Source: Candidatus Electrothrix yaqonensis (GTDB lineage Bacteria > Desulfobacterota > Desulfobulbia > Desulfobulbales > Desulfobulbaceae). Taken from it: a stretch of 32,000 nucleotides of DNA. A model generated the notes under the pieces. That model saw nothing but the letters and a program-made list of their open reading frames with translations, made no database searches and was not told the DNA's origin. Made by a program: the position numbers and the translations under genes. Location: positions 2,010,001-2,042,000 of the forward strand of contig CP178758.1 in NCBI GenBank assembly GCA_047651235.1, in the 5' to 3' direction. Shown in pieces: positions 3,257 to 31,818 of the stretch; the stretch's first letter is position 1, and each line of letters starts with the position of its first letter.

Positions 3257-3349
3257 TTCATTTTTTGTTGATTTTGGCCCAACTGTCCATCAGGTTAATA
3301 ATAATACGGTTAACAGCTCATGGTTCCTTGGGGATATAGTCCACATTGA

Positions 3350-3982
3350 TCATAGGCAGTGATCCTTTTTTTCCCGATAGTCGAACGTTCGGACACCGGC
3401 GGTAATACCTCTCAGTTCGTCAAGAGAGGTGTCAGGAATAAATCTGTCCAGTAGCTTTCGCAACGTATCCAGTCCGTTGCTGTCATCTTTTCCCGCGACA
3501 AGGAGGAGATGATAGTCCATGATCCTTCGCAACGGTAATAGACTCTGTATTTCCCGCTCAATCAGTTGGACCTGTCCTCCTTTTCGTGAACCAGAAGCAG
3601 GAAATTTTGAGCTATCAAGAATCTGGATAAAAGAGGTTTTGTCAGCATAGGGCAGGGGGCCTTCTGGCTGCGAGTCATGGATAAAGTAGTTGGCAAGAGC
3701 TGCCTGAAGAAATTTTCCGCATATTTTGGTTGGCAGAAATCCAGATTCTTCTATTTCTATGATTGCCCTGATTTCTCCAGCGCAAAGGATGAGCAGGTCA
3801 ACACAGCACATCCGTGTTTCCCGTCCTTTCTTGGGGCCGACAAATAAGGGGAGATGTTGTTTTCCATCACAGTTTTCATCGCAGGCCGGATCACGCAACA
3901 GCTTATACTGACCAGGGAAATGCTGTTCAATGGTTTCTGCCAACGCATTAGCTACTGCAAGATGTAAGGGGTGCTTCGTCAT
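3350..3982 (-). CDS. Hypothetical protein, possible PD-(D/E)XK-like nuclease fold
   Basis: ORF 3350..4009. The Met at 3982 (MTKHPLHL) lies 2 nt after the glnS stop. The segment CVDLLILCAGEIRAIIEIEESGFLPTKICGK resembles a D...E-x-E...K nuclease core. This is tentative. Confidence 0.6.
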   Translation of the reverse strand: MTKHPLHLAVANALAETIEQHFPGQYKLLRDPACDENCDGKQHLPLFVGPKKGRETRMCCVDLLILCAGEIRAIIEIEESGFLPTKICGKFLQAALANYFIHDSQPEGPLPYADKTSFIQILDSSKFPASGSRKGGQVQLIEREIQSLLPLRRIMDYHLLLVAGKDDSNGLDTLRKLLDRFIPDTSLDELRGITAGVRTFDYREKKDHCL

Positions 3983-8835: not shown

Positions 8836-9042
8836 TCAATCCTCATTTTTTCGCAATGCCATTGCCTTTTGACTAATTTCCTCAATGCTGCCCTCTTCTT
8901 CATCCAGTTCCCCTCGCCACTTTGTGTAGTCAAAGGGTTCCTGCTGAATCAAGGCAGCCAAACGCTCGGCGTTGAAATATCTCAACAAGCTGGAAAGAAA
9001 GCTGAACAGTTTCAAACGCCACCCTTTCACACCAACTCCCAA
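8836..9042 (-). CDS. Small hypothetical ORF lying between the two thiH-tail repeats
   Basis: 68-aa track ORF with a TTG start inside the thiH tail. The acidic C-terminal half is PFDYTKWRGELDEEEGSIEEISQKAMALRK. No SD or family recognised. Confidence 0.3.
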   Translation of the reverse strand: MGVGVKGWRLKLFSFLSSLLRYFNAERLAALIQQEPFDYTKWRGELDEEEGSIEEISQKAMALRKNED

Positions 9043-10136
9043 TCCTTAAACACCGGCTGATACCCACTCTCCCGGATCATATCCGCCACCTCATCCACGC
9101 TACGGTCATCAGTGACCTCAAACTGCACCGTGGCGTCAGCATGATTTTTCAACGAATATTCCCCTACCCCCGTCTTGGATCCGGAAGAGAAGCGGGTCGC
9201 GCCGAGATGAACCAGTCGGTCGCGGAAGGCAGCTGATTCGCGGGTTGAAATGGTGATGCCCAGCCGGGGCATGAAGAGCCGCCAGGCCAGCATGAACTGG
9301 ACAAAATCAATATCGGAAAGAATGTTTTTTGGTTCAATGATCCCCTTGGCCTTGGTCATTCGGGGCAGGGAGAGGGAAATCTCCACATCCGGGAATTCTT
9401 GCTCCAGCCAGCGGGCATGGAGCGCAGCCATACATGCCTCCCTGCGCGGTTCCCCCAGGCCGAACAGGGTGCCGATATTCAGGGCCCGGAAGCCTGCCCG
9501 TGCCCCGCGTTCCGGGGTCAGCAGGCGGTACTCGTAATCCGCCTTTCTGCCGCGCGGATGCACCTCTTTATAGATATTCCGATCATAGACCTCCTGGTAC
9601 ACGGTGAGTGAATCGGCTCCGGCCCGGCACAGCACCCGGTAGTCCTCCTCATCCATCGGGAAAATTTCCAGGGCAATGGATGAAAAGTATTTTTTCATCA
9701 CAGCGACTGCTGCTTCCAGATAGGATATCGGGGTCTTGGCCGGGGCTTCGCCGGTGAGGATCAGGATGTGGCGGATACCGGTGGCAGCAATGGCGGCAGC
9801 CTCCCGTTCGATTTCTTCGATGCTCAACTTGGTGCGGGGGAAATCCACGCCTGCATTGAAGCCGCAATAGGTGCAGAGATTGGAACAGTAGTCGGAAATA
9901 TAGAGGGGCGCGTACAGGCTGATGATATTGCCGAAATGCTGGCGGGTGAGCCGCTGAGCCTTGCGGGCCATTTCTTCGAGGAAATTGCGGGCTGCTTCAG
10001 AAAGCAGGTTCAGCAGGTCGCGCTGGTCCAGTTCCTCCCGCTGCAGAGAGTTGCGCACGTCCGCCGGGGTGACAGATTGAAAATATCCTTCAAAATCAAA
10101 ATTATCCAGTTCCAGAACGCGGTGCATAAAGGACAT
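9027..10136 (-). CDS. thiH: 2-iminoacetate synthase (tyrosine lyase), radical SAM
   Basis: 369 aa with the CSNLCTYCGF radical-SAM cluster motif. It lies downstream of thiS-thiG. Confidence 0.93.
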   Translation of the reverse strand: MSFMHRVLELDNFDFEGYFQSVTPADVRNSLQREELDQRDLLNLLSEAARNFLEEMARKAQRLTRQHFGNIISLYAPLYISDYCSNLCTYCGFNAGVDFPRTKLSIEEIEREAAAIAATGIRHILILTGEAPAKTPISYLEAAVAVMKKYFSSIALEIFPMDEEDYRVLCRAGADSLTVYQEVYDRNIYKEVHPRGRKADYEYRLLTPERGARAGFRALNIGTLFGLGEPRREACMAALHARWLEQEFPDVEISLSLPRMTKAKGIIEPKNILSDIDFVQFMLAWRLFMPRLGITISTRESAAFRDRLVHLGATRFSSGSKTGVGEYSLKNHADATVQFEVTDDRSVDEVADMIRESGYQPVFKDWELV

Positions 10137-10137
10137 G

Positions 10138-10935
10138 TCAGTTCCTCAGGAAACCGGTCAAAGGAGAAGATGCATCGGCGTATTCCTTTTCCTCGGCCAG
10201 CTGGGCCAGCCGGGCCATTCTGCCAGCCTGCACAGCCAGGGCAAAGGCCTTTCCGGCTACAACCGGATCATGACTGGTGGCAATGGCTGTGTTGACCAAA
10301 ACCGCATCTGCGCCCATCTCCATAGCCTCAGCCGCTTGGGACGGCCTGCCGATTCCGGCATCCACCACCACAGGCAGCTTGCTGACCTCAATGATCCGTT
10401 TGATCATCGGCTTCATCTCCAGGCCCCGGTTGGTACCGATGGGCGCGCCCAGCGGCATGACCGCAGCAGCCCCGGCATCGTGGAGCTGCTTGGTCACGGT
10501 GATGTCCGGCATCATATAGGGCAGGACGATAAAGCCCTCCTTGGCCAGAATCTCCGTGGCCCTGAGCGTACCTGCGTTATCCGGCAGCAGGTACTTCATG
10601 TCCGTGATCACCTCAATCTTGATAAAATCGCCGCAGCCTGCTTCGCGGGCAATCCGGGCGATGCGCACCGCTTCCTCGGCGGTTCTGGCCCCGGAAGTAT
10701 TGGGCAGAATGCGCACCGATTTGGGGATGTAGTGGAGGATATCCTTTTCCTTTGCTTTAGGATCCACCCGACGCAGAGCCACCGTGATCAGTTCCGAGCC
10801 GCTGGCCTCCAGCATAGGCGCGATGATCTCCCGTGAGGCAAACTTGCCGGTGCCGGTGAGCAGACGGCTGGCAAAGGGCACGTCGCCGAAGTACAGGGTA
10901 TCATCTGCCGGTTCAGGTTCAATATGCTTGGACAT
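10138..10935 (-). CDS. thiG: Thiazole synthase
   Basis: 265 aa with ThiG hallmarks ([51 protein letters not shown]). Confidence 0.95.
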
Positions 10936-11133
10936 TCATCCTCCTCCTACAAAACTGAGCAGCTCGACCGTGTCGCCCTCGTGCAGGGGCATCTGCTGCC
11001 AGTCTTCTTTTTTAATCAGCTGAAAATTGACCTCCGCAATCACGGCATCTGGATTAAAGCCTTTTTCCAAAACCATCTCGTGCAGGGTCCGGCCTGCTGT
11101 TGCTGTTTTCTCGCCGTTCAGCGTAATATGCAT
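10936..11133 (-). CDS. thiS: Sulfur carrier protein ThiS
   Basis: 65 aa starting at the internal Met of ORF 10936..11253 (MHITLNGE...) and ending in the canonical GG. It abuts the thiG start. Confidence 0.85.
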   Translation of the reverse strand: MHITLNGEKTATAGRTLHEMVLEKGFNPDAVIAEVNFQLIKKEDWQQMPLHEGDTVELLSFVGGG

Positions 11134-11269
11134 GATAATTGAAGAAACAAATTTTTTCAGTAACGAAAAAAGCTGAGTACTGAGTATGAAGAGCCTGACC
11201 GGGACTGCGCGAGACCGCAGCCTGCGGCAGAGCAGAGGAGGAGCAAGAAACAAAAGGGAACTCCTGCGG

Positions 11270-11370
11270 AGCGTTTATCACTGTTCCTACGACGGCATGA
11301 TCCGTATCAGGTTCCAAGGGTTGGAGCGGCTGCTCCTCTCAGCTCATACAAAAAGCACCCCCAGTGAAAC
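11270..11370 (-). promoter_or_regulatory. TPP (THI-box) riboswitch upstream of thiSGH
   Basis: The minus strand reads cactgggggtgctttttgtatgagCTGAGAggagcagccgctccaACCCTTgGAACCTGATacGGATcATGCCgtcgtAGGaacag. This matches the conserved GGGGUGC / CUGAGA / ACCCUU-GAACCUGAU-GGAU-AUGCC-AGG elements. Confidence 0.85.
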
Positions 11371-11552
11371 ACAGATCAATGTCTACCTGATTTCTTCGTG
11401 GGTTGTCAATGTAAATCAGGGGCGAGGCGGCAGGTGGAATATTTGACGGGTGAGGTTGTTCAGTTATGCTTCCGACCTCCTTTTTCAAAATTATTTCTTC
11501 ACTTTTCCCATAGAGGACGAATCTTTTCCGTCATTCGGTTGAAAATATCAGT

Positions 11553-15222: not shown

Positions 15223-16030
15223 TCAGCTGAGCCTGACTATCTCCTGAAGGATTTGCTCAATAACTTCAGTATTGTAAATTTTCTTCTTTTTTCCGTTTCC
15301 TTTGATGGAATACACGAAAAACACCTTGCCGCCAAATTTCTTTGTGAACCGCTCGTGATTTCGGCGGTGCATTTCGAGTCATTGATATTTATTGACAGAC
15401 TGACCGGAGGTAACAGGTTTTATCTGAATGCCGATATAGTTTGAATTGATCTGAATGTAGAAATCAACACCGTAGTGCTCAGTCATAGCTAAGTTTTAGG
15501 ATTGCTATCTCCAAATAAGATACGAATATTAAACGAGTGCGACATGTTCAACCCTAAATTTTAGGCTTTACAAAGCAGTAGGTTCTGTCCCATTCATCCG
15601 GGGCAGGTTCTATTTCCCGGTTCAGAATGGATTCAAGCTGCCCGTAGACAGTGTCAATTTCTGCCCGGTATCCTTCATAGGTCCGGTTAAGCACCAGATT
15701 GTAGGCATAGTCGATACATTCCTCTTCGGATATCGCATTAAGTTCGCTGCGGATGACTTCGGATATTTTGATGTACAGGGTCTGACTAAGTCCTGTTATG
15801 TATTCCTTCGTAATTCTGAGACCTTCTTTTTTCTTCTGTCGGGCATTGCTGAAGTAAAAAGTCTCCCACTCCGCAAAACTGCCCGGAGCACAAGCCCGTA
15901 TCAGTTCAGATGTGGGGCCTACGCTGTATGCTTTGTTCAGCCCCCATCGGTTCATGCCGTAATTCAACAGAGTTTCCCGCCTGAATTTCAGATTTCGCCC
16001 CTCTGCACCGGAGATCCATTCTTTCTTCAT
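15223..16030 (-). pseudogene. Disrupted type II restriction endonuclease-like gene (cognate of the adjacent methyltransferase)
   Basis: The N-terminal piece is ORF 15554..16030, whose start overlaps the MTase stop. The C-terminal piece at 15223..15486 reads MTEHYGVDFYIQINSNYIGIQIKPVTSGQSVNKYQ*LEMHRRNHERFTKKFGGKVFFVYS. It has a D...Q-I-K (PD-(D/E)XK-type) core and an in-frame TGA at 15379-15381. All frames are closed between the two pieces. It is possibly MjaI-like, but that family call is from memory only. Confidence 0.55.
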
Positions 16031-17315
16031 TCTTGTCTCAAACGGAGAAATTTCTGTTTGTTTTTGTACTCGGTCTGCTCGTCAACAAAAACCAGTCCGT
16101 TTTTGATCAGATGGGCATTCAGAAAGGTTCTGTTTTTCAGGTATAAATAGCAGAGGAGGTTGTTGTCTTTATCGTGTTTGTCCCGGTCGAACCGCATGTA
16201 CACCTTCTGGTTTTTTGTTTTCCTCTGCAGAAATGCAACCGCATCCTGATTGCAGGCTGCGTCTTCTTTTATACCGATCAGCCGGACTGTCAGGCCGTTA
16301 CCGAGCTGAACAAGTTCCGGAGTAAGGACTGTTTTCACACTGTGATACTCTTCTCTTTGGCCGGAATCCCTGTTGATTTTTGAACCGAACTGCAGTTTTT
16401 CCGGATCGATTTTTTTATCAAACGCGTGAGGGTCTTTGAAAACATACGGGAGCCTGCTGATTTCCTCGGCAAAATCAACATCTAACTTGCCCTGTTCAGT
16501 AAACTCGTATTCCGCCCCCAATATTTCCACCTGATTGATCTGGAGCTTCTTTTTAATAAAGGGTATAAATTCAGCATTTATTTCATAGCCGACTGAATTT
16601 CTGCCGTTATTCTTTGCCGCCAGGGTTGTTGTGCCGCTGCCGAGGAACGGATCAAGGACAGTATCACCGACAAAGGAGAACATCTTGATCAGTCTTTTCG
16701 GTAGCTCTTCCGGAAACATGGCAATATGGCCGTCCTGCTTTGCCCCACGAAAATTCCAATGCCCGGCAAAGTACTCCTTCCATTCCTCCTTGGTCATTTT
16801 GGATAATTCTTTTATCTCTTTGGTCGCCTTTTTCGGGGTACCGAGCTTCTTGAAAAGGAGAATAAATTCATAATCAATAGAGAGAATACCATTGCGGGGA
16901 TGAGGAAAACTGCCCATGATGCTGGCCCCGCCTGTGGTATTAGTGGTTGTTTTTTTTGCCATATCACCGCCCCCATGTAGTCAAATCCGATGCTCTCACA
17001 GAACTTGATGATTTCCGTCCGGATCGGAATGACTTTATAGCGGCCGTAATAGACCGAACGGGCGAACTGATCCCCGATATTGATACAGAGCCTGCAGCCG
17101 TTATCGAGCACCCTGTGACATTCATTCCAGACAAGATTCAACGGGTTGATATAGCTTTCGTAGCTGTCATTGAAGCCTATCTGCTCCTCTGTGCCGTAAT
17201 CCTTCAGCTGCCAGTACGGCGGTGAGGTGATGACAAGATGAACGGACTTGTCGTTCAGTTCGTTCATTTTTCTGCTGTCGCCGCAGATAATCGTATGGCG
17301 TGTTGTCGTGTTCAT
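16027..17315 (-). pseudogene. Beta-class N4-C/N6-A DNA methyltransferase with a C-terminal SNase-like domain, split by a frameshift in an A8 tract
   Basis: ORF 16812..17315 carries motif IV (VITSPPYWQLKDY). ORF 16027..16962 carries motif I (DPFLGSGTTTLAA). The two join as ...GAVIWQKK/TTTNTTGGASIMGSF across the T8 run at 16950-16957. The C-terminal 130 aa (LTVRLIGIKEDAA...CYLYLKNRTFLNAHLIKNGLVFV) look thermonuclease-like. Confidence 0.8.
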
Positions 17316-22869: not shown

Positions 22870-23721
22870 TTACAGCATCAGCAGAGGGAGTTGGCGTAAT
22901 TCAACCGCCAGGGGATAAGCCAGCCCGTGCATGGCCAGCTGCTCGTCATCCTTGGTATTCATGACCAGCAGGTTGACCGCATGCGACTCTATTGCCTGTT
23001 GATATTCCGTCAGATGATGCCCAAAACTGACCAGCGGGTGGACCTTGAGGGACAGCCCCTGGGCCTCAAGAACCTCCTGGCAAGAGCTGGTGTAATGAAT
23101 GGGGTCCTCAAGCAACTGGTGCGCTATCCGCTCCCTGGCCTCATCCGTATCAATGCTGGGTATCTTGGAAATGGCATTGATGTAGCGCTCAAAGACCGCC
23201 TTGTCCTCAATATGCGCCAGATAGAGATCACCATACGGTGCCACAAAACTAACCGCATGGTTGACCAGCGCATGATTGTTTGCCAGCTGATCCGTAATTG
23301 CCATGACCACCTTGATTTCCCGGAGGACATCGGCATTGGCATAGCCTGCCTCTGGGTGCGGCATGACCAGTACCGGCGCAGCGGTTCGCTGGAGTAGCAC
23401 ATCCAAGTGTTCGCCCAGGCTGTGCCGGTATTTCCAGGCCCTGCTGTGCAGATTCCGATAGGTGCAAATCAGGTCAGGGCGGCGGGCGGTCACTTTTTCG
23501 AGCAGTTCAGTGGTGGTGCGGAACTCTTCTCCATGCACCAGCTCAACTTCTGCTTTCTTGAGATTGGCCGCATAATCCAGCGTCTGCCGGACAAACGCCT
23601 GGCTCCGGGCGGCGTCAGCATCCGTGACGAACAGCACACGGGGAAATGCCACGGCCTCGTACTCAAAGGCATCATGCGCCGCTGCCCGGAAGACACTTTC
23701 AAATTGATCTATTTGGGTCAT
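22870..23721 (-). CDS. Tandem universal-stress-protein-like protein
   Basis: 283 aa in two USP-like halves ending APVLVMPH and NLLVMNTKDD...LPLLML. The classical ATP-binding Gly motif is not evident. It is adjacent to the permease, with a 2-nt gap. Confidence 0.5.
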   Translation of the reverse strand: MTQIDQFESVFRAAAHDAFEYEAVAFPRVLFVTDADAARSQAFVRQTLDYAANLKKAEVELVHGEEFRTTTELLEKVTARRPDLICTYRNLHSRAWKYRHSLGEHLDVLLQRTAAPVLVMPHPEAGYANADVLREIKVVMAITDQLANNHALVNHAVSFVAPYGDLYLAHIEDKAVFERYINAISKIPSIDTDEARERIAHQLLEDPIHYTSSCQEVLEAQGLSLKVHPLVSFGHHLTEYQQAIESHAVNLLVMNTKDDEQLAMHGLAYPLAVELRQLPLLML

Positions 23722-23958
23722 TTGGTCACCGTAGTACTGTGAGGATAAGCAGGATGGCTTGCCCTCTCAGCAGACAGGGTTCAGAGAGTAATAGCTTCAC
23801 AGCTATTAGTAACAGGAATGAAATCGTTCTGTCAACAAACGCTTGCAGCGATCCATTATAGGTTGGTCGCAGCACCCGGCCTGTCCTTATCCTTCTTGCT
23901 CTTTCCTCCGCAATAGGGTATCTCATTGGAGATAATGATGAATCATTCTGGGTCGTAC

Positions 23959-24058
23959 GCCCCAGGGTTGAAACTATGTTCGGTGCGTCCCTCCGGGACG
24001 GCGGTTCTCCATTGTCCCTGAGGGACAAACGATAATAGCCCCGTGATTTATCGCGGGG
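23959..24058 (+). repeat. Hairpin-rich about 100-bp repeat, copy 1 (partner at 26238-26337)
   Basis: ccagggttgaaa...gtccctccgggacgg...ttgtccctgagggacaa...cgataatagccccgtgatttatcgcgggg aligns with the copy downstream of the STAND gene. The last 29 nt are identical. Confidence 0.75.
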
Positions 24059-24099
24059 GAACGTGTTGGTGGTTTTTGAAAGAGGAGCAGGAGGCAGTG

Positions 24100-26087
24100 A
24101 TGAAGGATAACAGGTTCGACAACAAAGACGGCGGAGACCAGAACATTGCCCAGGGGGATAGGGCTGTGAGCAAGGTCACCCAGACAAGCATCGGCAGTAA
24201 CAACGCCTCTACCGGCACAGGCGATATCAACATAACAAACAAGAACTATCTGCCCGCCGAAGCGGTGCCCTCCTCCATCCTTCCCAGCGAAGACTCCATC
24301 TTCCTCCACCGGGAGGAAGAACTATCCTGGCTGGACAACCACCTGCACCCGGACAAGGTGGTCGCCATCTGCGCACCAGGGGGCATGGGCAAGACCGCGC
24401 TGGCAGCCCGTGCTTTGGGTATCAGGGCTGAGGCTGATTTGGAGCAACAGGTTGCTGCGGCTCTAGGCAGTAAGCAGGCATTGCTGGTTCTGGACGGGGC
24501 TGAGGAGGCTGACGACCTGGATGCTGTGCTGCGTCTGCGCGGGACCTGCGGGGTGCTCATCACCACAAGGAAGCGGACCGACTGCGGACCCTTGCGCCTG
24601 GATCTACCACCCCTGCCTGAAGATCAGGCGGAAGAGGTGTTGCAGGCCTACAGCCAAGTGACCGGGGAGAAGGAGGCCATCCAAGGCATTGAGAAGATAC
24701 TGGGTGGCTGGCCCGTGGCCCTGCGTATTGCTGGTCATTATCTGCACAGTACCGGGGAGCCTGCGGCAGACTACCTGCGCTGGCTGAAGAAGCGGCCTTT
24801 CAGGAAGCTGCGGACTGGTGGCGAGCATCAGAAAGACAACGCGGCTCTGCTGCTGGAACGCAGTGTGGAGCAGGTGAGCGCGGATGCAGTCCTGGTGCTG
24901 CGGCTGGCCGGGGTGCTGGCCTTTGCGCCTATCAGCCTTATGTCGGTGATGTTTGTTTTGTCGACAGATGGTGAAGATCAGGAGGAGCTTGAGCTGCGCA
25001 GCATGGAGGCCGTGAATGAGCTGGTCAATTACGGGCTGCTGGAACGCCGGAAGGAGGGCCTGCATATCGGCCATGCCCTGATCCATGAGTATGCTGCTGG
25101 GCAGTTGGTTTTGGGGAAAGAGGAGCTGGGGCGGGTTGCTGCTTTTTATATTGATTGGTGCAAGGAACAGAGTGCTGCCGGGGTACCGGGCTATGTCCGC
25201 CTGGATGGGGAACGGGTGCATTGCCTGCGGTTGATTGGGGCCTGTTTGGAGAGGGAGTTGTGGAGGGAGGTGAAAGGGTTGGTCGGGGAGATGTGGGAGT
25301 ACCTTGACCGACAGGGCCATTGGACAGAGCAACTGGCTGCCGTAGAGATGCGCCTGACTGCGGCCCGGCAGGCAGGCGACCGCCAAGATGAGGCAATTTG
25401 CCTGAATAACCTGGGCTACACCTGTTGGCGGCGCGGGGAGCAGGAACAGGCCCTGCGCTGGTATGAACAATGCCTGCCCATACGCCGCGAGCTGGGCGAC
25501 CGGAAGAATGAGGGTGTAACCCTTAACAATATTGCTGTAATTTATTGGCAGCAAGGCAAATATGATGAGTGCTTGGAACAATGTAAGCAGAGTTTAAGCA
25601 TCCACCGAGAGATTGGCAACCGGAGGGAAGAAGGCGTAACCCTGAATAATATTGGCAGGGCTTATAAGACACAAGGCTATAATGAGAAAGCATTGCAGTA
25701 TTATGAACAGTGTCTGCCTATCGCACAAGAAGTTGGCGATAAGATCGGGGAAGGGATAACCCTGAATAACATTGCTGGCATCTATACCGTGCGCAAGGCA
25801 ACCATGCTATGAGTTTGAAGTATCTTAAACAAACATCAGGAATATACCAAGAGATTAGTGACAGGGCCGGAGAGTTACTAACATACTGGAACATCGGCCT
25901 CACTTATGAAGACATGGGCGATCTTGCCGAGGCAGAGAAATACATTACTCAGGCTATACAGATTGCTAAGGCCATTAGCCATCCTGAATTAATGACATAC
26001 CTTAAGGGGTTGGCAGCGGTACAGGCAAAGAGACGGGGGATGTATGGACAATTCCCTTTAAGTGCCCGTAGTGATGACTACCTATAG
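24100..26087 (+). pseudogene. STAND NTPase: NB-ARC-like P-loop domain plus TPR array, with a frameshifted 3' end
   Basis: The Met at 24100 follows AGGAGCAGGAGG. It has Walker A (APGGMGKTALA), Walker B (ALLVLDGAEE) and a GxP-like motif (GGWPVALRIAGHYL). There are 5 or more TPRs (LNNLGYTCW..., LNNIAVIYW..., LNNIGRAYK..., LNNIAGIY). The frame breaks at about 25783-25787 (atctataccgt) and the TPR reading YRAQGNHAMSLKYLKQ... continues in ORF 25809..26087. Confidence 0.8.
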
Positions 26088-26237
26088 TGATTTAGTGTGG
26101 AATCAGGTCGCATGGCATTTCGTCATCACCGTGTAGGGGCAAGCATGCCGTGTCCCTACGGAAATCCTCGCCCCCCCCACCACCTAAGGCGGTTCGCAAA
26201 CCGCCCGTGGCGTTTCCGGCATTCCACACAGGAGGCC

Positions 26238-26337
26238 CAGGGTTAAAAGGGCTCTATTCGCTTCGTCCTTTTGGGACGGCTTCCCTTGTCCCGTAGGGAC
26301 ATCCGATAATAGCCCCGTGATTTATCGCGGGGCGAGG
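26238..26337 (+). repeat. Hairpin-rich about 100-bp repeat, copy 2
   Basis: See 23959-24058. The two copies bracket the STAND NTPase gene in direct orientation. Confidence 0.75.
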
Positions 26338-26487: not shown

Positions 26488-26574
26488 GTATGACTAGGCT
26501 CATACGCTCCGTATGACGAGGCTCATACCAGCCCATATGACTAGGCTCATACGCTCTGTATGACGGGGGTCATG
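26488..26574 (+). repeat. Tandem 23-25-bp repeat (about 3.7 units), each unit containing TATGA-N6-TCATA
   Basis: The units are gtatgactaggctcatacgctcc / gtatgacgaggctcataccagccca / tatgactaggctcatacgctct / gtatgacgggggtcatg. Confidence 0.85.
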
Positions 26575-26607
26575 TTTCCCTTCCCCACTGCTGATTCACT
26601 CGGTACC

Positions 26608-26844
26608 AGCATGCTGACTCAGGCCGAAACAGTGGCTCGAAATGTTCCGAAATGGATCAGCGAGGCCGGATTCACAGCCCTTTCTGTCGGCCCCGGTCAT
26701 GCCCAGCTTGCCGGGGAATGGGAAATGTCGCACCGTGACCCCTTTGACCGAATGCTTGCGGCCCAGGCAAAGCTGGAAAATATCGTTCTGGCAAGCGTTG
26801 ACAAAGAATTGAGACGATTCCCTGTTCAAATCATGAGGAAATAA
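26608..26844 (+). pseudogene. C-terminal half of a COG3744-type PIN toxin gene, copy 1
   Basis: VPKWISEAGFTALSVGPGHAQLAGEWEMSHRDPFDRMLAAQAKLENIVLASVDKEL carries the HRDPFDR-L-AQA motif. The N-terminal DTH/SxWE half is absent. A 77-codon ORF from the ATG at 26611 is possible. Confidence 0.65.
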
Positions 26845-27800: not shown

Positions 27801-27837
27801 TATGTTATTAACCTCCAAAGCTCCTTTTGTTTTATTC

Positions 27838-27973
27838 CCTTACAATTACATCATTCTCAGTATATTCAATTCTTCCCGGAATCTCAACGGCTCCGGTTCA
27901 GCGAATTGAAAATTCACCTGATGAAAAATAACCCTGCTTCCTGATACGCATATTTTCCTGTAGCGGCTCTTTG
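27838..27973 (+). repeat. Leader repeat, copy 1 (partner 31238-31350), here fused to MNT pseudogene copy 1
   Basis: cccttacaat..attctcagtatattcaatt..caacgg..gattga..cctgatga.. aligns over about 125 nt at roughly 75-80 percent identity by eye. Confidence 0.7.
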
Positions 27974-28275
27974 ATGATCCGCATCTGCCTGCGGGAAGAA
28001 GTACATCGTCTGCTTCCTGATGCGAAAGTAATTCTGCACGGTTCCCGTGTCCGCCAATGCAACCCGGCAGGATTCTGACTGGGATTTTTTGATCATCGCT
28101 GATCATCCGTTGGACAGAGAGATCATAACAAAGCTGAAGGATGGGCTGTATGACATTGAGTTGGAAAATGATGAGGTGGGTGAGCAGCATTATACGGAGC
28201 AGGCAGGAGTGGTCTTCGCCTGCATACGATGCCTTGCTGTTCAAAAAGGCGGTGGAGAAAGAGGGTGTAGTGAAA
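27974..28275 (+). pseudogene. MNT nucleotidyltransferase pseudogene, copy 1 (altered 5' end, two frameshifts)
   Basis: MIRICLREEVHRLLPDAKVILHGSRVRQ, then a shift at cgccaat (about 28051-28056) to ANATRQDSDWDFLIIADH... A second shift comes from an extra g in gaggtgggtgagc (about 28176-28180). Confidence 0.75.
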
Positions 28276-28956: not shown

Positions 28957-29287
28957 ATGGTAACTTATTTGGTTAATCAGGTCAAGAACCTGCATCAGGT
29001 GCGGGAGGAAGTACATCGTCTGCTTCCTGATGCGAAAGTAATTCTGCACGGTTCCCGTGCCCGCCAATGCAGCCCGGCAGGACTCTGACTGGGATTTTTT
29101 GATCATTGCTGATCATCCGCCGGGCAGAGAGATCATAACAAAGCTGAAGGGTGGGGTGTATGATATTGAACTGGAAAATGATGAGGTGGTGAGCAGTATT
29201 ATACGGAGCAGGCAGGAGTGGTCTTCGCCTGCATACGATGCGTTGCCGTTCAAAAAGGCAGTGGAGAGAGAGGGCGTAGAGCTGTGA
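28957..29287 (+). pseudogene. MNT nucleotidyltransferase pseudogene, copy 2 (full length, single frameshift)
   Basis: MVTYLVNQVKNLHQVREEVHRLLPDAKVILHGSRAR, then a shift at cgccaat (29051-29057), then ANAARQDSDWDFLIIADHPPGREIITKLKGGVYDIELENDEVVSSIIRSRQEWSSPAYDALPFKKAVEREGVEL*. Removing one C gives a spacing identical to the intact MNT at 6846..7160. Confidence 0.75.
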
Positions 29288-30134: not shown

Positions 30135-30362
30135 TTCTGCACGGTTCCCGTGTCCGCCAATGCAACCCGGCAGGACTCTGATTGGGATTTTCTGATCATT
30201 GCTTATCATCCGTTGGACAGAGAGATCATAACAAAGCTGAAGGATGGGCTGTATGATATTGAACTGGAAAGTAATGAGGTGGTGAGCAGTATTATACAGA
30301 GTAGGCAGGAGTGGTCTTCGCCTGAATACGATGCGTTGCCGTTCAAGAAGGCGGTGGAGAGA
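30135..30362 (+). pseudogene. MNT nucleotidyltransferase pseudogene, copy 3 (truncated at both ends)
   Basis: It starts at ttctgcacggttcccgtgtccgccaatgc, which contains the same frameshift context. It reads ANATRQDSDWDFLIIAYHPLDREIITKLKDGLYDIELESNEVVSSIIQSRQEWSSPEYDALPFKKAVE. Confidence 0.7.
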
Positions 30363-31129: not shown

Positions 31130-31236
31130 TATAGCTGGAGCAGTATAAACTGAATACAGGATCAGCTATCTGAAAGGCGTGAAGGCAAAACTTATGCCTC
31201 TTGTGGGCATATTCAAATTATGTTGCTCCAGCTATA
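31130..31236. repeat. 13-bp perfect inverted repeat with an 81-nt spacer, upstream of the HEPN/MNT operon
   Basis: tatagctggagca (31130-31142) and tgctccagctata (31224-31236). Confidence 0.6.
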
Positions 31237-31237
31237 T

Positions 31238-31350
31238 CCCCTTACAATCGTATTATTCTCAGTATATTCAATTTTTCACGAAATTTCAACGGTTACAGTT
31301 TAGTGGATTGAGCATTTGCCTGATGAGGTGCTTTTGTTCCGCAGACGCAA
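31238..31350 (+). repeat. Leader repeat, copy 2, here fused to PIN half-gene copy 2
   Basis: See 27838-27973. Confidence 0.7.
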
Positions 31351-31559
31351 CCGAAGAAAAGACGGCTCGAAGTGTTCCGAAATAAATCAGCGAGGTCGGG
31401 TTCACCGCCCTTCCTGTCGGTCCTGATCATGCTCGGCCTGCCGGGGAATGGGAAACGGAGCACCGCGATTCTTTTGATCGGATGCCTGCGGCGCAGGCGA
31501 AACTGGAAAATGTCGTTCCCGCAGGCGTTGACAAAGAATTGAGGCGATTTCCTGTGTAG
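31350..31559 (+). pseudogene. C-terminal half of a COG3744-type PIN toxin gene, copy 2 (with an in-frame stop)
   Basis: SVPK*ISEVGFTALPVGPDHARPAGEWETEHRDSFDRMPAAQAKLENVVPAGVDKELRRFPV*, with TAA at 31383-31385. DNA similarity to copy 1 continues past the stop to about 31690 (versus about 26905). Confidence 0.6.
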
Positions 31560-31818
31560 ATTATGAGGGAATAAATGAGGGCAACAGGCGGGTGGCCGAT
31601 GCCCGGTACAATGCGTTATGGGTTGTGCAAGGTTTCCGGGGAGTGGGGCTTGATAGCGGCACATGGCTCGGTATGATGAGGGGGGAATGTGTAAGCAGGA
31701 AAGGTGATCTGACCCCGGTTTATGCTACGCTTGTATTCTGCTTGTTTTTTTGAATCCGATACGGTAATTTATTTAAGTTTATTAACCCAATTTATAAAAT
31801 TTATCCATTTTGAACACC

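Follow-up and report, generated by a model that had tools for sequence, protein, structure and literature searches.

A probable NLR-like STAND pseudogene between eroded REP-type elements in the cable bacterium Candidatus Electrothrix yaqonensis

The stretch of DNA analyzed here, termed the window, comprises 32,000 nucleotides of Candidatus Electrothrix yaqonensis (assembly GCA_047651235.1, contig CP178758.1, positions 2,010,001 to 2,042,000, forward strand). Between positions 23959 and 26337, it carries a gene of the STAND (signal transduction ATPases with numerous domains) type with C-terminal tetratricopeptide repeats (TPRs), bracketed by two direct copies of an element of about 100 nucleotides. 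The locus is most probably a decaying, non-functional NLR-like STAND gene of a cable bacterium, lying between eroded repetitive extragenic palindromic (REP)-type elements in an ancestral slot adjoining a Usp-like gene and at the edge of a toxin–antitoxin island.

The locus and its gene

The features of the locus are as follows; ORF denotes an open reading frame and BASS a bacterial amyloid signaling sequence.

23722 to 23958, no strand: intergenic stretch from the divergent Usp-like gene (22870-23721, minus strand) to the STAND gene, about 88% conserved with the syntenic locus of Electrothrix aestuarii up to GATAATGATGAATCATTCTG
23961 to 24058, plus strand: left REP/REPIN-type element, an inverted pair of two-hairpin units with the 3′ arm of hairpin 1 deleted (nhmmer E 7e-27)
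24013 to 24058, minus strand: right half of the left element, Rfam Acido-Lenti-1 (RF01687) at 26.3 bits against a gathering score of 37
24100 to 24240, plus strand: G/N/Q-rich modules A (MKDNRFDNKDGGDQNIAQGDRAVSK, 24100-24174) and B (VTQTSIGSNNASTGTGDINITN, 24175-24240), conserved family motifs of BASS-like composition
24100 to 25812, plus strand: ORF1 of the probable STAND pseudogene, 570 aa, with the N-terminal motif, a damaged NB-ARC NTPase, a helical/winged-helix region and TPRs
24397 to 24413, plus strand: deletion junction (102 nt, 34 aa, at about 24405), from alignment and DNA comparison with an intact homolog
25783 to 25784, plus strand: TA duplication (ATC-TA-TA-CCG) shifting the frame, outside any homopolymer
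25785 to 26087, plus strand: last TPR units of this gene, read in another frame and listed as ORF 25809-26087 (TPR_12, 61.8 bits)
26133 to 26205, plus strand: other REP-like hairpins in the 3′ intergenic region, the GTAG-footed GTAGGGGCAAGCATGCCGTGTCCCTAC (26133-26159) and GGCGGTTCGCAAACCGCC (26188-26205)
26236 to 26332, plus strand: right REP/REPIN-type element, hairpin 1 partly deleted (nhmmer E 3e-22)
26287 to 26332, minus strand: right half of the right element, Acido-Lenti-1 at 31.1 bits, sub-threshold

The gene occupies two consecutive ORFs on the plus strand, 24043/24100-25812 and 25809-26087. ORF1 carries, in this order, a P-loop of the form GxxxxGKT/S (APGGMGKT, 24373-24396), a Walker B motif of the form hhhhDD/E (ALLVLDGAEE, 24478-24507) and a GxP motif (GGWPVAL, 24703-24723). 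TPR_12 and TPR_10 match strongly in both ORFs, with TPR_12 at 95 bits in the first and 62 bits in the second. The preliminary description of this DNA had proposed an NB-ARC/TPR STAND gene with these motifs, all of which are indeed present. By homology search, the product of ORF 24100-25812 is 100% identical to a protein of 570 aa from Ca. Electrothrix sp. YB6, annotated as "tetratricopeptide repeat protein" and encoded on a 3.74-Mb contig. The generic TPR model of PADLOC matches the gene and no Avs model does; the top NCBIfam match, FxSxx_TPR, lies far under its cutoff (116 against 300 bits).

The NB-ARC profile (Pfam PF00931) scores 19.5 bits in ORF1 against a cutoff of 23.5, with only profile positions 85-143 aligned, while an intact paralog at the retrieved locus L055 scores 34.2 bits over positions 11-236. 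The family thus consists of NB-ARC proteins, and the window copy is a damaged member. L055 was considered as the ortholog of the window gene and ruled out, being a 60%-identical paralog in a different genomic context. Homology searching returned 359 relatives, of which nearly all named ones belong to Electrothrix or Electronema, with several paralogs per genome; a typical relative has 650-750 aa and combines NB-ARC with TPR_12/TPR_10.

The closest homolog, P0002, shares 81% nucleotide identity with the window gene. Its AlphaFold (AF2) model has a mean predicted local distance difference test score (pLDDT) of 82 and matches best the STAND-TPR protein of PDB entry 6MFV (E 3e-17), followed by Avs3, Apaf-1, CED-4 and the plant resistosomes (ZAR1/NRC). 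Structure prediction had been suggested for both the N-terminus and the NTPase core; applied to P0002, it confirms the core as STAND and yields no confident fold for the N-terminus. Together with the TPR scores, the model establishes a TPR repeat sensor and an overall STAND fold. Like PH0952 (PDB 6MFV), Apaf-1/CED-4, plant NLR resistosomes and Avs3, the family combines a P-loop/Walker B/GxP core with helical domains and a C-terminal TPR sensor. Unlike them, the window copy lacks β2/α2 and fails the NB-ARC cutoff, and a short G/N/Q-rich motif takes the place of a CARD, TIR or nuclease effector domain.

Lesions in the gene

The first lesion lies in the NTPase. From GKT to ALLVLD, the window protein has 27 residues, and each of 11 aligned homologs has 34 more. 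The window protein alone lacks these 34 residues (ALRSLPADRFPDPIIFHTFYHKPATAQALQTIAR in P0002), which lead from the P-loop helix to Walker B, and no other family member among 120 listed has the short spacing. Relative to the P0002 DNA, the change is a clean in-frame deletion of 102 nt, and the lost segment is bounded by an 8-nt direct repeat, GCCCGTGC, a signature from which slippage or illegitimate, microhomology-mediated recombination may be read. According to the P0002 model, the deleted part comprises the end of α1, strand β2 (P0002 126-130) and helix α2 (P0002 137-147). It includes F122, P123, D124 and F131, invariant in 50 family members, and several near-invariant residues. The window copy therefore has no complete α1-β2-α2 core between Walker A and Walker B, and the loss of the β2/α2 segment explains why its protein falls under the Pfam NB-ARC cutoff.

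The second lesion cuts off the last TPRs. The sequence ...NNIAGIY is read in frame 1 and its continuation, RAQGNHAMSLKYL..., in frame 3; comparison with the DNA of the closest homolog traces the frameshift, previously placed at about 25785, to a 2-nt TA duplication at 25783-25784. Third, the ancestral stop codon TAG of the homolog has become TAT at about 26043-26045, which adds 14 codons. Given three independent lesions (the NTPase deletion, the TA-duplication frameshift and the lost stop codon), the simplest reading is that the gene is a pseudogene, and we hold this to be the best explanation of the whole with good confidence. Other family members are also interrupted, one by an in-frame stop (L021:3660-5627) and one by a frameshift (L066:993-2974), which suggests frequent pseudogenization in this NB-ARC/TPR family.

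The distance of about 27 residues between Walker A and Walker B had also been noted as unusually short. The spacing is real; what it reflects is a copy-specific deletion of 34 residues of a core present in every homolog rather than a compact variant. A functional, unusually compact STAND NTPase, with the frameshift being a sequencing or assembly error or being bypassed by programmed frameshifting, would fit a deletion that is in frame, an ORF1 that is long and annotated as a protein, and the presence in the window of at least one further frameshift, associated with a homopolymer. Such an enzyme is nonetheless highly improbable: β2, α2 and four residues invariant in 50 relatives are gone, the short spacing recurs nowhere among the 120 listed members, the frameshift is a TA duplication and not a homopolymer error, a stop codon has been lost as a third lesion, and both flanking elements are eroded as well.

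The other frame change of the window lies in an N6/N4 DNA methylase gene (16027-17315, minus strand) that adjoins an MjaI-like restriction endonuclease gene (15554-16030). The methylase is split in two overlapping ORFs (Pfam positions 1-89 and 85-221), and the change of frame coincides with a run of eight A residues (A8) near 16950-16960; phase variation, decay or a homopolymer assembly error would each account for the split. Because of this A8 run, the assembly may carry homopolymer errors, a class to which the 102-nt deletion and the TA duplication do not belong.

The flanking elements

The left and right copies are direct repeats. Where they align, they are 81% identical, and their last 28 nt agree exactly, a match that none of 100 shuffles attained. 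Both fold better than shuffled controls (z = -3.8 and -2.7), and they are the only two copies of the ~98-nt element in the 32-kb window. That the gene is bracketed by direct copies of a multi-hairpin element of about 100 bp, at 23961-24058 and 26236-26332, therefore holds.

The full Electrothrix element measures about 105 nt and consists of hairpin 1 (CCCAGGGTTGAAACCCTGGG), CTAT and a linker, GTCCCTCCGGGAC, a spacer, GTCCCGGAGGGAC, a linker and ATAG, and hairpin 4 (CCCCGTGATTTATCGCGGGG). It is a quasi-palindrome that matches its own reverse strand, as in the inverted doublets called REPINs. Each half resembles Acido-Lenti-1, with units on both strands, and covariation is seen in hairpin 1. Both window copies are eroded, with part of hairpin 1 missing. 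Scanned against Rfam for ribozymes or known RNAs, the repeats gave only the sub-threshold Acido-Lenti-1 matches; among related Electrothrix copies, one at L019 reaches 43 bits, above the gathering score of 37, and the others score 25-35 bits.

An exact scan of species-representative genomes with a 20-mer hairpin of the element found 55 loci, against an estimated one or so expected by chance, in Electrothrix, Planctomycetota, Acidobacteriota, Bacteroidota, Chloroflexota, Cloacimonadota and others. The acidobacterial (Pyrinomonadaceae) copies are inverted pairs about 105 nt apart. A conserved tetranucleotide foot precedes the hairpin on its 5′ side in 52 of 66 copies (ATAG 36, AGAG 10, GTAG 4, CTAG 2). 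Exact copies within one genome amount to seven loci in the complete E. laxa, and L056 holds six copies in 6 kb.

Four loci retrieved by the hairpin alone have a Y1_Tnp (IS200-like) transposase gene within ~300 nt of it (L040:2458-3085, L013:1351-1986, L004:868-1308 and L039:2805-3387), from Cloacimonadota, Balneolaceae and E. aarhusensis; the hairpin in question is CCCCGTGATTTATCGCGGGG with its ATAG foot. The Y1_Tnp scores are 94 bits at L040, 88 bits at L013 and 67 bits at the E. aarhusensis locus L039, where copies at 2805-2856 and 3336-3387 flank the transposase gene. No Y1 transposase gene occurs among the ORFs scanned in the window.

REPs, bacterial interspersed mosaic elements (BIMEs) and REPINs are defined as hairpins that carry a tetranucleotide at the foot, are dispersed between genes, form inverted doublets and flank Y1 transposase genes (PMC6006769). 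Since the repeat has a footed hairpin, inverted doublets, an intergenic location and Y1 flanking, it is classified here as REP/REPIN-type with a non-canonical foot. It shares with REP/BIME/REPIN elements and their REP-associated tyrosine transposases (RAYTs) the short G+C-rich hairpins with a conserved 5′ foot and the intergenic, multicopy inverted doublets whose copies flank Y1_Tnp genes (PMC3116915, PMC3337134, PMC6006769). It differs in having two hairpins per unit, and its 20-mer is common to very distant phyla, whereas REPs are usually species-specific (PMC6006769). By inference, such elements would be spread by a RAYT-like Y1 transposase.

Acido-Lenti-1 was reported as a small RNA (sRNA) motif of Acidobacteria and Lentisphaerae (Weinberg et al. 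2010, PMC2864571). The present element has the same 8-bp stem, GCUA with a linker of about 12 nt, and 5-bp stem, and one Electrothrix copy reaches 43 bits. It differs in that the window copies are sub-threshold (26.3 and 31.1 bits) and in that it occurs in Desulfobulbaceae, on either strand, in inverted pairs and next to Y1 genes. Copies on either strand, in inverted pairs and adjacent to Y1 genes argue for a REP that acts at the DNA level, and Acido-Lenti-1 is probably a cross-phylum REP family, not an sRNA.

Further hairpins accompany these elements. Hairpins of the form GTAGGGGC...CCCTAC, similar to those in the 3′ intergenic region of the window, follow other paralogs. At 26489-26573, a palindromic unit of 38 nt (TATGACTAGGCTCATACGCTCCGTATGACGAGGCTCAT) stands twice in tandem, and a similar TATGACGAGGCTCATAC occurs after the right-hand element in L055; this unit is probably another REP-like family.

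Gene and repeats in related genomes

The bracketing repeats had been taken in the preliminary description to suggest that the gene arrived or moves as a unit. In such a mobile cassette, either integron-like with boundaries of the attC type or a unit delimited by the repeats and excised and inserted whole, gene and direct repeats would travel together. The order element-gene-element is in fact found in four contexts: the window, L055 (60% aa identity), L056 around P0002, and L061 around P0011, where the elements are halves. Same-orientation copies at L056 punctuate small genes and toxin–antitoxin pairs as in a cassette array, and close homologs occupy differing genomic contexts. A survey for genes bracketed by the element, proposed earlier for the genome and made here over the retrieved loci, and a comparison of the neighborhoods of homologous STAND genes, also proposed, bear the arrangement out around three paralogs (L055, L056 and L061) and, through the same element between unrelated genes at L056, the element-free paralogs and the E. 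aestuarii synteny described below, speak against its meaning a mobile unit.

At L056, the element fills six successive intergenic gaps, all in gene orientation, thereby also separating five further, unrelated small genes and toxin–antitoxin pairs. Six unselected paralogs include two without any element (L059 and L060, both preceded by Uma2 genes), and several paralogs have an upstream copy only. REP-type elements thus fill intergenic gaps in Electrothrix variable regions independently of the gene. The surroundings of P0002 (L056:1-18070) form a defense island with a CBASS-like SMODS gene and E1/E2, AAA_15/RloB, XisH/XisI, ParE and PIN/FitA genes.

The syntenic locus of E. aestuarii provides what we regard, from the alignment, as the decisive test. 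There, the orthologous Usp and CitMHS genes (88% aa identity) have as divergent neighbors a small transmembrane-motif gene and the NLR gene P0109. The Usp-proximal 240 nt of the intergenic region align at ~88% between E. aestuarii and the window and end at GATAATGATGAATCATTCTG. After this point, the window has ~125 extra nt, mostly the REP element, with no counterpart in E. aestuarii. Alignment resumes at the start codon, where E. aestuarii retains an 18-codon relic (MNNRFKSKDGDRNNARGD*) of a module-A 5′ end of the window type. Given this synteny, the Usp-adjacent slot already held a family gene before the two lineages parted, and the left REP element is an independent indel.

The idea of a unit that arrived or moves as a whole consequently finds no support: the repeat is REP-type, its copies lie between unrelated L056 genes, two of six paralogs lack it, and its left copy is an indel relative to E. 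aestuarii, which has the family gene and the 5′-end relic without a left element. A mobile cassette is hardly credible for further reasons. No integrase was found among the scanned window ORFs or in the L056 gene list, and Y1 transposases, not integrases, adjoin copies of the element. The 2.5-kb element-gene-element unit had no match in plasmid and phage collections.

Integron gene cassettes resemble the present arrangement in their attC sites, imperfect palindromes of about 100 bp in one orientation between co-oriented small genes that include toxin–antitoxin pairs, as at L056. The differences are the lack of an intI in the material scanned, the absence (by reading) of R″/R′ core sites, the multi-hairpin structure as opposed to a single bulged hairpin, and the association with Y1. 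The core sequences RYYYAAC/GTTRRRY were not seen at the element ends, and the fold consists of several separate hairpins. An attC or cassette identity of the repeats was rejected on these four grounds.

N-terminal modules and small transmembrane partners

The N-terminus of the window protein has a biased composition. Residues 1-47 contain 15% N, 13% G, 8.5% I and neither L nor P, compared with 3% N in the remaining protein; the enrichment does not extend to V and Q, nor is K depleted. With this reservation, the segment was counted as a short N-terminal motif of the BASS type, rich in N/G/Q/V/I and poor in P/L. The earlier characterization as low complexity without an effector domain holds for the biased composition and the lack of a Pfam match but not for random low complexity, as the segment belongs to a conserved motif set.

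Across the N-termini of 120 relatives, modules of 18-25 aa recur ahead of a conserved linker and the P-loop. Their consensus sequences are NxFxNKGGxQNIAQGDxAIGKQVN (module A), VxQxVxGxGNIxSGxGDVHV (module B) and IGIIGDxAxVEGGIHFHNH (module C); module D is G/A/V-rich. In the window protein, module A comes first and module B second. No known effector or adaptor domain was found at its N-terminus in Pfam, NCBIfam or PADLOC, in agreement with the earlier statement that a recognizable globular effector is missing, and no transmembrane helix is predicted there. A phmmer search of 1.8 billion representatives with residues 1-67 returned four family fragments and three weak, spurious-looking matches, and no relatives from outside. 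The equivalent region of P0002 (residues 1-67) has an AF2 pLDDT below 50 and no confident structure.

A hydrophobic helix precedes the modules in about 13 of 100 relatives, the all-in-one forms. Several genomes instead encode helix and modules in a separate small gene immediately 5′ of the NLR gene, and in these pairs the module that ends the small protein matches the one that opens the NLR. Matched B-B pairs occur at L019, L041 and L066, and matched C-C pairs at L062 (E. aestuarii) and L064 (Electrothrix sp. Rat3), with 14 of 17 residues identical in L064. The L064 modules differ by 7 synonymous and 3 non-synonymous codon changes, which indicates that the match is kept by selection and does not stem from recent duplication. 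Two-gene units span L062:7339-9788, L064:3501-5929, L066:544-2974 and L041:4961-7408.

The small effector proteins have 98-112 aa and one predicted hydrophobic helix; they match neither Pfam nor NCBIfam, and no Bell- or HeLo-like domain was found in them. Small transmembrane-module proteins form 17 clusters, all from Electrothrix or Desulfobulbus sp. US2. The window locus has no adjacent effector gene: its upstream neighbors are the REP element and, beyond it, the divergently oriented Usp gene.

Two related arrangements were observed. At L006:1648-2979 and L033:4677-6134, a module A N-terminus is followed by a coiled coil and TPRs without the NB-ARC NTPase, with a REP element upstream. A Uma2-family (putative endonuclease) gene lies directly 5′ of the STAND paralogs P0031 and P0023 (L059:3433-4017 and L060:3530-3988), overlapping or 12 nt apart, and is a possible alternative partner or effector.

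Relation to amyloid signaling

NLR-associated BASS motifs are defined as stretches of ~25 aa, rich in N/G/Q/V/I and poor in P/L, at the N-terminus of an NLR and repeated at the C-terminus of an adjacent effector (bioRxiv 10.1101/2020.01.06.895854). The intact relatives of the window gene resemble BASS/HET-s amyloid signaling proteins and, judged by their sequence patterns, appear to be amyloid-type cell-death switches. What makes them fit the description by Dyrka et al. is the position of the motif, the adjacency of the genes, the pseudo-repeats, the all-in-one variants and the N/G/I-rich composition.

The closest parallels are the Bell/BASS pairs (bioRxiv 10.1101/2020.01.06.895854), HET-S/NWD2 and E. 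coli Bab/Agp (bioRxiv 10.1101/2024.11.07.622273). As in these systems, an N-terminal motif of 20-25 aa, rich in N/G/Q/I/V and poor in P/L, sits on an NB-ARC/TPR protein and recurs at the C-terminus of the upstream neighbor's product, the modules numbering two in the effector and one or two in the NLR. All-in-one fusions also exist, and the host is multicellular, as in the cases of Dyrka et al. The Electrothrix effector differs in being ~100 aa long with one predicted transmembrane helix and without a Bell- or HeLo-like globular domain, and the window copy differs in being broken and in lacking an adjacent effector gene. For these reasons, the signaling proposal does not apply to the window copy itself.

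In the intact relatives, sensing by the TPRs would promote oligomerization through NB-ARC, which would gather the N-terminal motifs. The clustered motifs could then template the matching motif of a partner that crosses the membrane once, either the separate small protein or a transmembrane helix fused at the N-terminus, and membrane damage or cell death would be the outcome.

To our knowledge, amyloid-type NLR signaling is so far known from fungi, Actinobacteria, Cyanobacteria and a single E. coli system. A literature search found nothing tying cable bacteria to NB-ARC/TPR proteins of this kind, and a broader query on NLRs and amyloids gave nothing relevant among the top matches.

Points against the proposed reading

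Several points weigh against the reading of the locus and its relatives given here. In principle, an assembly error could underlie the frameshift; the other frameshift of the window, in the DNA methylase, is located in an A8 run. Seven exact 20-mer loci in E. laxa are a modest count for a REP, and the Electrothrix foot is ATAG, not the canonical GT[AG]G (PMC6006769). The amyloid-type mechanism is a reading of sequence patterns alone. Finally, of the 16 full copies found with the 20-mer, nine lie 1-25 nt before the start codon of a family gene, which would allow some functional link with the genes.

This last point raises the question of whether the 105-nt element serves chiefly to regulate in cis, as RNA or DNA, in a 5′ leader or between cistrons, and so governs translation, mRNA stability or termination, rather than being a selfish REP; a REP origin would be compatible with such a role. 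The element does keep a constant intercistronic site from the small transmembrane gene to the NLR gene in L019, L041, L065 and L066, its copies are ~90% alike while the adjacent proteins are only 50-60% identical, and effects on mRNA stability, termination and translation have been described for REPs (PMC6006769). It also occurs, however, between unrelated L056 genes and near purL-like and other genes, a different hairpin fills the gap of the C-C type pairs, and two paralogs have no element at all. No promoter-like site is predicted upstream of the element in the window, where a scan for promoters and terminators near the element gave nothing above shuffled expectation. A mainly regulatory module is therefore unlikely, and the REP-type classification is retained; the position near start codons and in the operons of the B type is compatible with a co-opted REP.

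Other features of the window

The block upstream of the locus is housekeeping in character, with genes for GlnRS, a thiamine operon and its TPP riboswitch, HtrA, MgtE, TrmFO, a CitMHS transporter and the Usp-like protein. The riboswitch (11266-11372, minus strand, 77 bits) lies upstream of the thiS-thiG-thiH operon (10936-11253, 10138-10935 and 9027-10136).

Downstream of the locus is a toxin–antitoxin island with PIN/FitA, TumE, RelE/Xre and HEPN/MNT genes. Just past the right repeat, at 26560-26844, is a truncated PIN-domain ORF that covers only Pfam PIN positions 55-118. A 217-nt repeat of 82% identity (D2) links the region of this ORF with a second site in the island at 31364-31580. The island also contains a 228-nt direct repeat in three copies ~1 kb apart with 68-93% identity (28032-28259, 29042-29269 and 30135-30362), and a 92-nt repeat joins 27833-27924 and 31235-31326.

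Significance

The locus alone is ordinary and matters little, although recognizing a pseudogene between REP-type elements removes the false lead of a compact STAND protein on a mobile unit. Modest novelty lies in the putative amyloid-type NLR system with a minimal transmembrane effector and in the probable identity of Acido-Lenti-1 as a transposase-associated, cross-phylum REP. The link of Acido-Lenti-1 to Y1 transposases would affect the annotation of that motif.

Cable bacteria are centimeter-long multicellular filaments, and we know of no account of how they deal with infected or damaged cells. We tentatively propose, as an idea somewhat short of an even chance, that they maintain a large, fast-turnover NLR-like repertoire that signals by amyloid-like templating onto single-transmembrane effectors of ~100 aa, some of them fused in cis, and that would act as a switch for cell death or compartment sacrifice in the filament. 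The window gene would then be a dead member of this repertoire, and the Acido-Lenti-1 REP would have been co-opted as an operon spacer. If true, the family extends amyloid-type NLR signaling to the Desulfobulbaceae and offers a very small effector for experiments.

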